Part shown: one piece after another, positions 17,044 to 20,000 of the stretch | Numbering within the stretch: position 1 is the stretch's first letter | How the letters are laid out: each line of letters opens with the position of its first letter | DNA from: Escherichia coli | GTDB lineage: Bacteria > Pseudomonadota > Gammaproteobacteria > Enterobacterales > Enterobacteriaceae | Assembly: GCF_003018235.1 (NCBI RefSeq) | Contig: NZ_CP027437.1 | Length of the DNA: 64,000 nucleotides | Direction: 5' to 3' (one strand) | Position numbers and translations under genes: made by a program | Notes under the pieces: model-generated | Seen by the model: the letters and a program-made list of their open reading frames with translations, nothing else | What the model was told of the DNA's origin: nothing | Databases searched by the model: none

Positions 17044-20000
17044 TCAGAACGACCAGTTCGCACCAGCCACCGCGTTCCATGGGGATTCCACACCGGCACC
17101 ATGGCTATACCCCACCCCGAGATGCCCGCTTAACGAACTGCTGAATGAGGCTTTAATACCTGCCTGATATATTCCACGTCTGCCCGACAAATCATTGACA
17201 AAATTACCGTCATTATTCACTTTTACCCGGTTATCATCGACAAATTCTTTGCGCACAGCCACCTTCAGCCACGGCTCAACTTCCATGCCGTTCCCCAGAC
17301 GCATGTTGTAACTCAGCGTTGCGCCCAGTTCACGATATATACTGCGGGTATCGACTGATTTCGATTCCATGCCATTGGATAAATGATATTCGGGGTTATC
17401 AGCGGTGAACCCCGTTAACGATGCATACGGCGTCAGGTTCCAGTTACCATCGGTAAATCGCATCCCGGTTTCAATGTGACCGCCCAGCCCGTTGCTGCGA
17501 TAACTGCCGTTGGCGGCTCCACCGCTGCTCATTTTACCGGCTACGTTACTTTCAAAACGGTTCAGCTTCACGATACCGTCCAGATAGAAACCACTTTCAT
17601 GTTCCCAACTGGCATAGCCGCCCAGAGAATAACTGCCCACACTGCCATGACCTCCGCGATCAAAACCGATATGTGAATGGGAATAACCCATAAAAGCGCC
17701 CAGCGTGGCAATTCCTTCTGGAATATCATTACGGCTGTCGATCCCCACTGTCATTCCGATCAGCGTCTGCTCAAACCCGGCACCCGCATCGGTGGTGACA
17801 TTATTACGGGTGTTATACGTCGCCCCCCAGACATTATTGTTGTGTGGACTCGCTTTCATTATGTTCAACCGCTCGCGAATACTGTTTAGCTCAGCATCAA
17901 AGACCAACGGTAATGTTGCTGCCATATTGAGTACAGCTGCCGTAGAAGGCGTGATGCGTTTCTCCGGAACGGGTGTCGGCGTTGGATCGGGAGTCGGGTC
18001 TGGATTTGGATTTGGATTTGGATTTGGATTTGGGTTTGGGTTTGGGTTTGGGTTCGGGTTTGGGTTTGGGTTCGGGGTCGGGTTCGGGTTCGGGGTCGGG
18101 GTCGGGTTCGGGTTCGGGTTCGGGTTCGGGTTCGGATTTGGATTTGGGTTGACATCATTAGTCAGGTTCCAGTTGCTGTTGCCGTCGCTTTTCAGGACAT
18201 ACTCATAGGTCCCAAGATCAACGAAACCGCCGGTATTGCCCAGCGTAAACGACGCATCCCCTCCCCCTGTTTTCACCAGCGTCATCGCATCGTCAGACTG
18301 AGGGCTGACGCCGGTATCCTGAACAAAGATTTTAAAATTACCAGTGGCGTTGTTGTTGACGACCAGTTGATCGCCCCGGGAGCCTGCAATGTTGGTATGC
18401 AGGTAGAAATTACCGCTGCCGGAAAGTTCACTGGTGGTCAGCGTATTGTAGATACCGTTAGTTGTGGCAGGCGCTGATAAATAAACATCACCGTCGTTGA
18501 GTAGCAAACTGTTTACTCTATATTCGCAGTTGCTGGTGCCTGCACAGGAATTATTGCTGTTAAGCCAGACACTGCCCCGGCTGGCAGCCGTCAGGTCGGC
18601 AAGCGTCGTATCAACGCCATTGCCGATAGTGAATGTCGCGCTATCGGTAATCCGGATCGCCCCTTCGAGTTTAACTGGCGTAACATTATCCCGTGGCGTC
18701 ATTAACGACAGGCTTCCTGTCGCGCCACTGACCGATGCATCCGCCAGCGTACCTGCGTAGACGATTGCTGTCCCGCCAGCAACCTGGAGATCTTCTGCCC
18801 GGGCCAGAGCCTGAAACTCATCTTTTGACCGCCCAAGGGTATATTGCCCACCAGAGTTAACCTTTGTGGCGGAGTCCTGACCCAGGTTTTGCATTGCACC
18901 ACCCTTGTCAACCGTGGAGTCACGGGCTTCGGTACCTGCTAATACCAATAAATTACCGCCATTTTCCAGCAACATATTGGTCGCTAAATTGCTGGCAATG
19001 GAAAAGGTGCCGTACTGGTGCGTACCGCTGATTTCAATACCGTTAGCCGTGCTCGTCTGGAGAGCGGCACCGCTGTTCTGGACGATATCTGTCGCTTTGC
19101 CATTATCGTTGACTGTCAGCGTTCCGCCTTCATTGATCGTTGTTTTTATTGCCACTCCGTTAGCTGAAACTGTTTGTATTCCGCCGTCGTTAATTGTTGT
19201 CTCATTTGCCACACCCTCGACGATTTGTTCACCGCCAGTGAGCGTCGTGCCTGTCGCAGTGGCTTTTGTTTTGACGATCTCCCGACCGCCCGCATTGACC
19301 TGTGTTTTGGCGGAAGTGGTGTCTGACTCCACGGTTAACACGCCGCCATTTGTCAGCAGGATATTGTTCGCCGCACCCTGCTCGATGCTGAACGCGACGC
19401 CATCAGCGCGTGTCCCTGTGACCCGCGTCGCCCTGGTGGTTGCAACCAACGCGCCCTGACTACTCTGCTGTATCCCCGTTGCGCTGCCTTTCTCCCGCAC
19501 ATCGAGTATGCCGCCATTGTTAAGTCTGGTGGTATATGCTACGGCCTCCTCGTGGACAATCAGCTTACCGCCAGCATCAACGATGGTATCTACCGCCGAG
19601 GTTTGAGCTACGACCGTCAGTTGGCCGGTATTTTCCAGCACAACATGCTCAGCCCTGCCTCCGGTAATAGTGAAGTGAGATGACCTCTGGTATCCATCAA
19701 TATCAGTCCCCGCGCCCGTATTGGCAACTAAAGCGCTCCCCGTGTCCAGGTAAACCCCATGTGCGATACCGCCGGTATCGACAATCAGCGTGCCTCCGGC
19801 GCGAATATTGCTGCCAGTTGCCGTACCTCCTTTCTCAACAACCTGCTTGCTCCCGGAAGAGATATTTGTTGTGTCAGCTTTCCCGCCGCTCTTGATATTT
19901 TGCGTGCCACTGTTGATATTGGTTCCCGTAGCAATACCATGATTATAAATATTCTGTGTACCGCCATTAATTATGGTATTAGTCGCGTTCCCGGCAACAT

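Follow-up and report, generated by a model that had tools for sequence, protein, structure and literature searches.

The 64,000-nucleotide stretch of Escherichia coli DNA analysed here (contig NZ_CP027437.1; hereafter the window) carries an intact autotransporter gene in which a tract of hexanucleotide repeats, encoding mostly Asn-Pro dipeptides, lies between the passenger and the β-barrel. The gene sits, as in its nearest relatives, between minCDE and ymgJ/ymgI/ymgG/ymgD. The array falls within the region's longest open reading frame (ORF), a minus-strand frame that spans 17044–20565 when counted from its first in-frame start; we set the gene bounds at 17044–20436 by the annotated orthologue in strain 98210, which has the same ends and lies between minE and ymgJ. 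The gene and its domains are:

17044–20436, minus strand: intact gene of 3393 nt for an AIDA-type (type Va) autotransporter of 1130 aa (ORF translation, Pfam, orthologue ends)
18160–18516, minus strand: pertactin-like autochaperone domain, C-terminal end of the β-helical passenger, directly N-terminal to the tract (PF03212, E 1.4e-46; aligns with pertactin 1dab and Vag8 7akv)
17965–18150, minus strand: whole X-Pro tract, 31 units, protein residues 763–824 (codon table; AlphaFold)
17851–17949, minus strand: predicted long α-helix, the pore-spanning linker helix, 5 residues past the tract (AlphaFold helix 230–262)
17113–17832, minus strand: C-terminal β-barrel translocator (PF03797, E 1.1e-45; BrkA 3qq2, E 1.9e-24)

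Architecture of the autotransporter

The protein combines a β-barrel translocator with a β-helical passenger of AIDA repeats (PF16168, six stretches, E 2.4e-85 in Pfam) and a pertactin-like autochaperone domain, the features of an AIDA-I-type autotransporter of type Va. Its N-terminus, MNRISRYYFHRSVLSLLIAAMIYAPPGMTAF, looks by eye like a Sec signal peptide. A sequence-only reading of this DNA had placed the repeat between passenger and barrel, and the domain matches bear this out: in the numbering of the Pfam search, residue 760 is the last of Pertactin (PF03212), followed by the repeat at 764–825 and the β-domain (PF03797) at 870–1109. In a PDB sequence search, the translocator alignment with Vag8 (7akv) starts 2 residues before the end of the tract, and that with BrkA (3qq2) starts ~25 residues past it.

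We modelled the last 530 residues with AlphaFold (mean predicted local distance difference test (pLDDT) score 80). The model shows confident β structure up to residue 159 of this fragment, a helix at 230–262 and then β-strands to the C-terminus. Between them, residues 164–184 and 186–224, corresponding to 17965–18147, are coil with pLDDT below 50, and the tract is thus predicted to be an unstructured X-Pro tether. In classical autotransporters, the N-terminus of the pore helix emerges extracellularly; on this established architecture, the tract would therefore be a surface tether between barrel and passenger.

Two further signals in the tract were rejected. A Pfam match to Trypan_PARP is compositional and does not reflect homology (18.3 bits against a cutoff of 100). 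The overlapping ORFs at 17705–18208 (plus strand, 167 aa) and 17886–18158 (minus strand, 90 aa) are by-products of a repeat that lacks stop codons in other frames, and orthologues carry no RefSeq gene at this place.

A ypjA paralogue at the min locus

The best RefSeq matches are named ‘adhesin-like autotransporter YpjA/EhaD’. K-12 ypjA (locus L001, 3843–8423) is 4581 nt long and adjoins ypjF; intact orthologues of the window gene measure 3303–3417 nt. Orthology with K-12 ypjA or O157 ehaD was rejected by locus, since the window gene does not lie beside ypjF and the CP4-57 region. Judged by sequence and position, it is a ypjA/ehaD paralogue and not ypjA proper. Both copies are present in many genomes, with flanks at the junction that are 92–95% identical in DNA, and many other genomes hold only a barrel remnant at one place (rows of 13% coverage). 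In K-12, the second locus has only a remnant, ycgI.

Structure of the repeat tract

On the plus strand, 17965–18150 is made of GGATTT, GGGTTT, GGGTTC and GGGGTC units. The minus-strand codons give 31 unbroken X-Pro dipeptides (62 aa: 22 NP, 6 TP, 2 DP and 1 VP), in the order NP ×8, TP ×2, NP ×2, TP ×1, NP ×12 and DP-TP-DP-TP-TP-VP, so that X-Pro periodicity is strict over all 31. The tract divides into the following parts:

18001–18150, minus strand: variable core of 25 hexamers (22 Asn-Pro, 3 Thr-Pro), where copy number differs between genomes (comparison of 16 alleles and of near-identical haplotypes)
18103–18132, minus strand: longest pure sub-block, (AACCCG)5; 4–13 copies in related alleles (codon table, allele decoding)
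18073–18102, minus strand: span of three Thr-Pro units, ACCCCG, that break the AACCCG block, at 18097–18102, 18091–18096 and 18073–18078 (codon table)
18031–18054, minus strand: pure sub-block (AACCCA)4; 2–4 copies in other alleles, 12 in L010 (codon table, allele decoding)
18001–18030, minus strand: pure sub-block (AATCCA)5; 2–7 copies in other alleles (codon table, allele decoding)
17965–18000, minus strand: degenerate tail DP-TP-DP-TP-TP-VP, invariant in copy number (16 decoded alleles)

Among the 16 decoded alleles, the tail shows single-base differences only, apart from the first DP unit, which is absent in L010. Tandem Repeats Finder reported one array in 15000–24000, with period 6, at 17996–18150 (25.8 copies, 91% matches, no indels), and identical units stand head to tail in the pure runs (AACCCG)5, (AACCCA)4 and (AATCCA)5. 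The pattern GGRTTN ×4 matched 14 times in the sequence, every time within the tract; 100 dinucleotide-preserving shuffles gave an expectation of 0.00. Together with the codon reading, these results confirm that the repeat lies where the sequence-only reading had seen it, and the Pfam domains that it is an in-frame hexanucleotide array encoding an (Asn-Pro)n autotransporter linker. Its extent needed revision. The reading had given 17975–18150 and about 28 units; the end at 18150 and the hexamer array itself hold, but the tract starts at 17965, 10 nt earlier, and comprises 31 dipeptide units, with homogeneous hexamers only in the 25-unit core.

We coded the units as a (AACCCA), g (AACCCG), A (AATCCA), G (AATCCG) and T (ACCCCG, Thr-Pro). 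The window allele then reads a-A-G-g5-T-T-g-g-T-a-a-g-a4-A5, followed by the tail. The Thr-Pro unit is one A-to-C change away from AACCCG and is found in the window only, being absent from the other 15 of the 16 decoded alleles, whose variable core is Asn-Pro throughout, in four synonymous unit types. The Thr units split the AACCCG run into 5 and 2. Interrupted microsatellite runs are generally more stable than long pure ones, and we infer that the window allele should be less unstable than alleles with (AACCCG)9–13. The best identity to the segment 24500–36500 (pdeG-bluF-icd-rluE) among 5426 complete E. coli genomes is 98.6%; with no more than that over 12 kb, either the lineage of the window is not represented in the complete-genome set or the window stems from a near relative of E. 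coli.

Copy number differs between genomes by whole units

A first survey used a 751-nt query spanning the tract. The matched spans measured 763, 757, 739, 733, 727, 685, 679-equivalent and 673 nt, with all offsets multiples of 6. Ten decoded alleles fell into two tract types, a near-pure (NP)n followed by the fixed tail and a mix of Lys-, Asp- and Asn-Pro, and the orthologues of the window gene among them carried 18, 27, 28, 29, 31, 32 or 33 units.

For the second survey, we used 500 + 500 nt of flanks with the tract removed, so that the ranking was independent of the tract. The best 60 of ~440 complete E. coli genomes with close flanks fell into 11 in-frame length classes, the shortest of 16 and the longest of 38 units. 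Lengths of 28 (13 records) and 29 units (24) were the commonest; the others were 16 (1), 24 (3), 26 (4), 27 (4), 30 (3), 31 (2), 33 (3), 35 (1) and 38 units (1), and one record had a tract of 197 nt, which is not a multiple of 6. Fetched sequences confirmed the spans for nine of these lengths. No orthologue allele of fewer than 16 units was found among 68 sampled records. An identical repeat number in related genomes, which the sequence-only reading had named as the result that would speak against it, was thus looked for, and a range of 16–38 units was found. Length change without frameshift, as the same reading had proposed, also agrees with these data, in which genomes differ by multiples of 6 nt save for one allele with a 1-nt deletion.

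That allele belongs to L019 (NZ_CP007393.1), where AACCCG has become AACCG in one unit and the gene is annotated as a frameshifted pseudogene, through error or real inactivation. A phase-variable on/off locus was considered and rejected, the unit of 6 nt being a multiple of 3 and L019 the sole exception. A product of true ypjA, P0109, likewise runs out of frame past KPDPKP, again through error or real inactivation.

Many database proteins (P0107–P0119, P0005) are partial and end at the start of the tract (...NLTNDV or ...NLTNDVNPNP), on contigs of ~1.8 kb, and a cluster of barrel-only fragments has 2224 member sequences. The partial proteins that end at the tract imply that short-read assemblies break at or near the repeat, and draft genomes are therefore unusable for unit counts.

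Length changes separate near-identical haplotypes and are confined to pure runs

Three Dutch isolates with 0–2 single-nucleotide polymorphisms (SNPs) over 40.3 kb of flanks carry 29, 30 and 24 units, and the sole difference among their tracts is (AACCCG)9, (AACCCG)10 or (AACCCG)4. With five further genomes, of Korean, Scottish, Japanese and Russian origin, they form a set of eight with 0–1 SNP in 14.1 kb of flanks (one has 7). These eight genomes carry eight DNA alleles, of 24, 24, 26, 27, 28, 29, 30 and 33 units, which differ solely in the counts of AACCCG (4–12) and AACCCA (2–4). Single-unit neighbours are L004 and L005, and L002 and L003. The rapid length polymorphism that had been thought plausible from the sequence is thus observed: haplotypes whose flanks show 0–1 SNP in 14–40 kb stand 1 to 6 units apart. 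At least 7 length changes in a tract of ~170 nt stand beside ~8 point differences in 14.1 kb in these haplotypes and, by rough arithmetic, the tract as a locus changes ~10^3–10^4 times faster than a single site.

Equal lengths also occur with different internal structure. Alleles of 24 units are g4a3 or g5a2, and alleles of 31 units g12a2 or g10a4, each pair encoding the same protein; equal lengths therefore arose independently. The same allele proteins were moreover deposited by independent laboratories (the Netherlands and Korea for WP_135155397.1, the Netherlands and Japan for WP_001550981.1, China and Korea for WP_032180511.1), which argues that the variation is not assembly noise.

The tract of true ypjA, in which no two neighbouring hexamers are identical, served as a control. 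Its span, 19 units in K-12, is the same in 28 of 28 K-12-type rows, which come from many hosts and countries, and overall it has 18–20 units. Since the pure NP blocks vary while the impure ypjA tract is stable, instability follows repeat purity at the DNA level, as slipped-strand mispairing predicts.

DNA structure of the tract

The G-rich strand of the tract showed no hairpin potential above that of shuffled sequences (z 0.43), and hairpin-driven instability was accordingly rejected; the lack of hairpin potential fits simple misalignment. A regular-expression scan of both strands found one further feature:

18032–18130, plus strand: G-rich complement with 17 consecutive runs of G3+ and 3-nt loops

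With both strands of the 64-kb window scanned, this is the only canonical G-quadruplex motif (G3+N1-7, at least four times), and it is a motif match alone. Its GGGTTT and GGGTTC units resemble ciliate telomere repeats. GC skew is negative on the plus strand throughout, from which we infer that the gene runs with replication and that the G-rich strand is the leading-strand template.

Linker length in homologues

To compare linkers, we searched for homologues with the C-terminal 449 residues, tract removed, and then located two conserved anchors, ...W.L..D[LV], which closes the autochaperone domain, and [EK][KR]RITPSTAAVLNMAA at the helix. In YejO-type E. coli proteins, the anchors are joined by 2 residues (RA or RT). 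Relatives in E. albertii have 18–32 residues of Asn-, Asp- or Lys-Pro, and homologues in Salmonella, Citrobacter, Erwinia and others have ~20–55 Pro/Glu-rich residues. Linkers of 2 to ~55 residues at the same junction mark it as a dispensable spacer of free length, and secretion does not require the tether, given that 2 residues link the same two domains in close homologues. On these sequences, this E. coli paralogue has acquired its long homogeneous (NP)n array by a derived expansion.

Comparison with known repeat systems

The closest parallel is pertactin of Bordetella, a classical autotransporter with a β-helical passenger whose (GGXXP)n and (PQP)n are likewise short, in-frame, proline-rich repeats that vary in copy number between isolates. 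The passenger of pertactin carries the PQP region at its C-terminal end, a position comparable to that of the tract, and the autochaperone domain of the window gene is homologous (PF03212; 1dab). The pertactin units differ in having 3 or 5 residues, repeated ~3–6 times, whereas the tract repeats a 6-nt Asn-Pro dipeptide 16–38 times; moreover, pertactin has a short loop on the helix there, and the E. coli tract a long tether predicted to be unstructured. The numbers of GGXXP and PQP repeats serve for typing (PMC12243275).

True YpjA/EhaD of K-12 and O157 shares the domain order, an X-Pro tract at the same site and the same DPTPDPTPTPVP tail, but its tract is an impure mix of Lys-, Asp- and Asn-Pro, its gene measures 4581 nt against 3393 nt, and it occupies another locus. 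The (Glu-Pro)n(Lys-Pro)n segment of TonB also belongs to an envelope protein, has strict X-Pro periodicity and is usually taken to be an extended spacer. It is close in composition to the true ypjA tract (KPDPKPDP). Unlike the tract of the window, which would be extracellular and is uncharged and hypervariable, it is periplasmic, charged and essentially fixed in length, and the two share no homology. The (NANP)n of the Plasmodium circumsporozoite protein is Asn/Pro-rich, surface-exposed and length-polymorphic, and its PDB chains match the tract; its period is 4 residues, not 2, and organism and protein are unrelated. Homology was rejected here, as the PDB matches are compositional only.

Within E. 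coli, several loci of the GECM-10 scheme (CVN001–CVN017, CCR001) for typing by variable-number tandem repeats at several loci (MLVA) are 6-bp repeats that vary within sequence types (PMC3407997, PMC3877011; unit sizes from PMC8143711), and CVN014 also varies in sequence type 131 (PMC3407997, PMC3877011). With ≤3 mismatches allowed, the 20 GECM-10 primers (from PMC8143711) had no match in the window, at ypjA of K-12 (L001) or at an orthologue locus (L011), and we rejected the tract as a GECM-10 locus. One sequence type 131 genome (H29) holds only a barrel remnant of the window gene. In searches of the literature on YpjA, on the ycgI/ycgH autotransporters and on proline-rich autotransporter spacers, we found no description of the tract. 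What is new is this tract; an in-frame variable-number tandem repeat (VNTR) in the linker of a surface protein is already known in kind and is an ordinary type of variation.

Annotation, disrupted copies and the neighbouring autotransporter

The RefSeq/PGAP product name ‘YpjA/EhaD’ covers two loci, true ypjA beside ypjF and the shorter paralogue between minE and ymgJ. A 2022 review of autotransporters lists YpjA only as a biofilm-associated group-4 protein without structure. The passenger part of the window gene (18600–20436) is ~1.2 kb shorter than that of true ypjA, and matches to the long genes come in 4 pieces over ~4.7 kb. The gap probably reflects a different number of AIDA-type β-helix repeats, a second and coarser length variation.

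Other copies of the gene are disrupted as well. In H59 (NZ_CP147044.1), IS1A is inserted near the tract and the gene is left as pseudogene fragments, ‘pertactin-like passenger’ and ‘beta-barrel’. In VCSW5 (L014), the gene is annotated as frameshifted outside the tract, through sequencing error or real inactivation.

A second intact autotransporter of 887 aa lies at 21781–24444 on the minus strand, beside ymgD, and is annotated as YcgH in orthologous loci. It has no X-Pro array; ahead of its helix stands only ...ETPTPVLRPE..., with TPTPV at the place of the tract. In strain U1, YcgH is interrupted by IS1 and a mer transposon, and in K-12 it is a pseudogene.

Discussion

We consider it likely that the tract is an in-frame hexanucleotide VNTR, generated by slipped-strand mispairing, which forms a surface tether whose length is set by its copy number. 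In the proposed mechanism, identical 6-nt runs of AACCCG, AACCCA and AATCCA would gain or lose whole units, a step seen at the DNA level, most likely through slipped-strand mispairing during replication. The frame would be preserved and only the number of Asn-Pro dipeptides would change. An unstructured or extended X-Pro tether would join the last β-helix rung, in the autochaperone domain, to the α-helix that plugs the barrel; it would sit on the cell surface directly above the barrel, and copy number would set its length. Polyproline-II advances about 3.1 Å per residue. By arithmetic, the observed alleles of 32–76 residues would then span at most ~10–24 nm if fully extended in this form, and it is plausible that a longer tract makes the passenger project further, as the sequence-only reading had suggested.

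Several points weigh against this interpretation. The 60 genomes of the second survey were those with the closest flanks (99.6–99.8% identity) and are not a random sample. ‘Rapid’ describes repeat change set against flank SNPs in public assemblies, and slippage and unequal sister-strand exchange are inseparable by sequence alone. Asn-Pro repeats may form turns and not an extended rod, and the AlphaFold conformation is unreliable here. Finally, the 2-residue linkers of homologues and the frequent loss of the gene, seen as barrel remnants, argue that length may be unconstrained.

That last point leads to the main alternative, to which we give a little less than even weight: the variation would be a neutral by-product, with slippage variants of an unconstrained spacer arising without effect on fitness or on the adhesin. 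Homologues work with linkers from 2 to ~55 residues, the gene is dispensable and often a remnant or interrupted, and the lengths within one haplotype centre on 28–29 units with the stepwise spread that a simple mutation process gives. The 15 decoded core alleles that are all Asn-Pro through synonymous units hint, on the other side, at constraint on the peptide, although slippage of a few ancestral units could mimic this, and the lack of sampled alleles below 16 units points the same way; neither is decisive. The same retention of the Asn-Pro peptide despite synonymous unit diversity, the site of the tract directly above the barrel helix and the large length diversity within a haplotype would suit an adaptive tuning knob, in which a heritable and reversible tether length adjusts the reach of the passenger beyond lipopolysaccharide or capsule. 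We think this unlikely, given that a 2-residue linker suffices in the paralogous YejO-type proteins. More doubtful still is a selected evolvability device, a reversible heritable ‘ruler’ tuned to the thickness of O-antigen or capsule, with the G-quadruplex-capable template strand adding instability. A role in antigenic variation or as an immunodominant decoy, proposed for the pertactin repeats and for circumsporozoite NANP, appears improbable: the tract would be surface-exposed and is repetitive and rich in Pro and Asn, it matches circumsporozoite chains in the PDB, and pertactin repeat numbers vary enough for typing (PMC12243275), but more or fewer identical NP units create no new epitope and the circumsporozoite match reflects composition, not homology.

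Two remaining explanations concern the origin of the length differences. An exchange with the tract of the paralogue ypjA by gene conversion or recombination, instead of slippage, is favoured by the similarity of the paralogue flanks, by the coexistence of both copies in many genomes and by one database fragment with a hybrid-looking tract, NPNPNPKPDPTPDPTPTPVP. We nevertheless regard it as highly improbable, because each change within a haplotype adds or removes a single type of unit and brings in no K/D-Pro units, and the two tracts stay distinct in genomes that hold both. Assembly or polishing artefacts of a low-complexity region can hardly account for the differences. Draft assemblies do break at the tract, leaving the truncated proteins described above, and the 1-nt deletion of L019 is typical of homopolymer error; yet the differences are exact multiples of 6 nt at unit boundaries, complete genomes from different countries and independent laboratories share identical allele proteins, a tract of 96–228 nt is easily spanned by long reads, and systematic error would not give alleles of the same length with different internal structure.

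A hypervariable tract has practical consequences for work on E. coli. As one haplotype holds eight alleles, the tract is a marker of high discriminating power within lineages, and it lies outside the GECM-10 scheme. Surveys of draft genomes under-count intact copies of the gene, and name-based surveys of the presence or absence of E. coli autotransporters would mix two loci. A graded allele series of 16–38 units already exists in nature. If tether length alters reach, changes in copy number would let E. coli adjust a surface adhesin quickly, reversibly and by degrees while keeping it switched on. Should the doubtful evolvability reading prove true, the tract would be a contingency locus that works quantitatively and not as an on/off switch, in a species generally credited with few loci of this kind driven by repeats.

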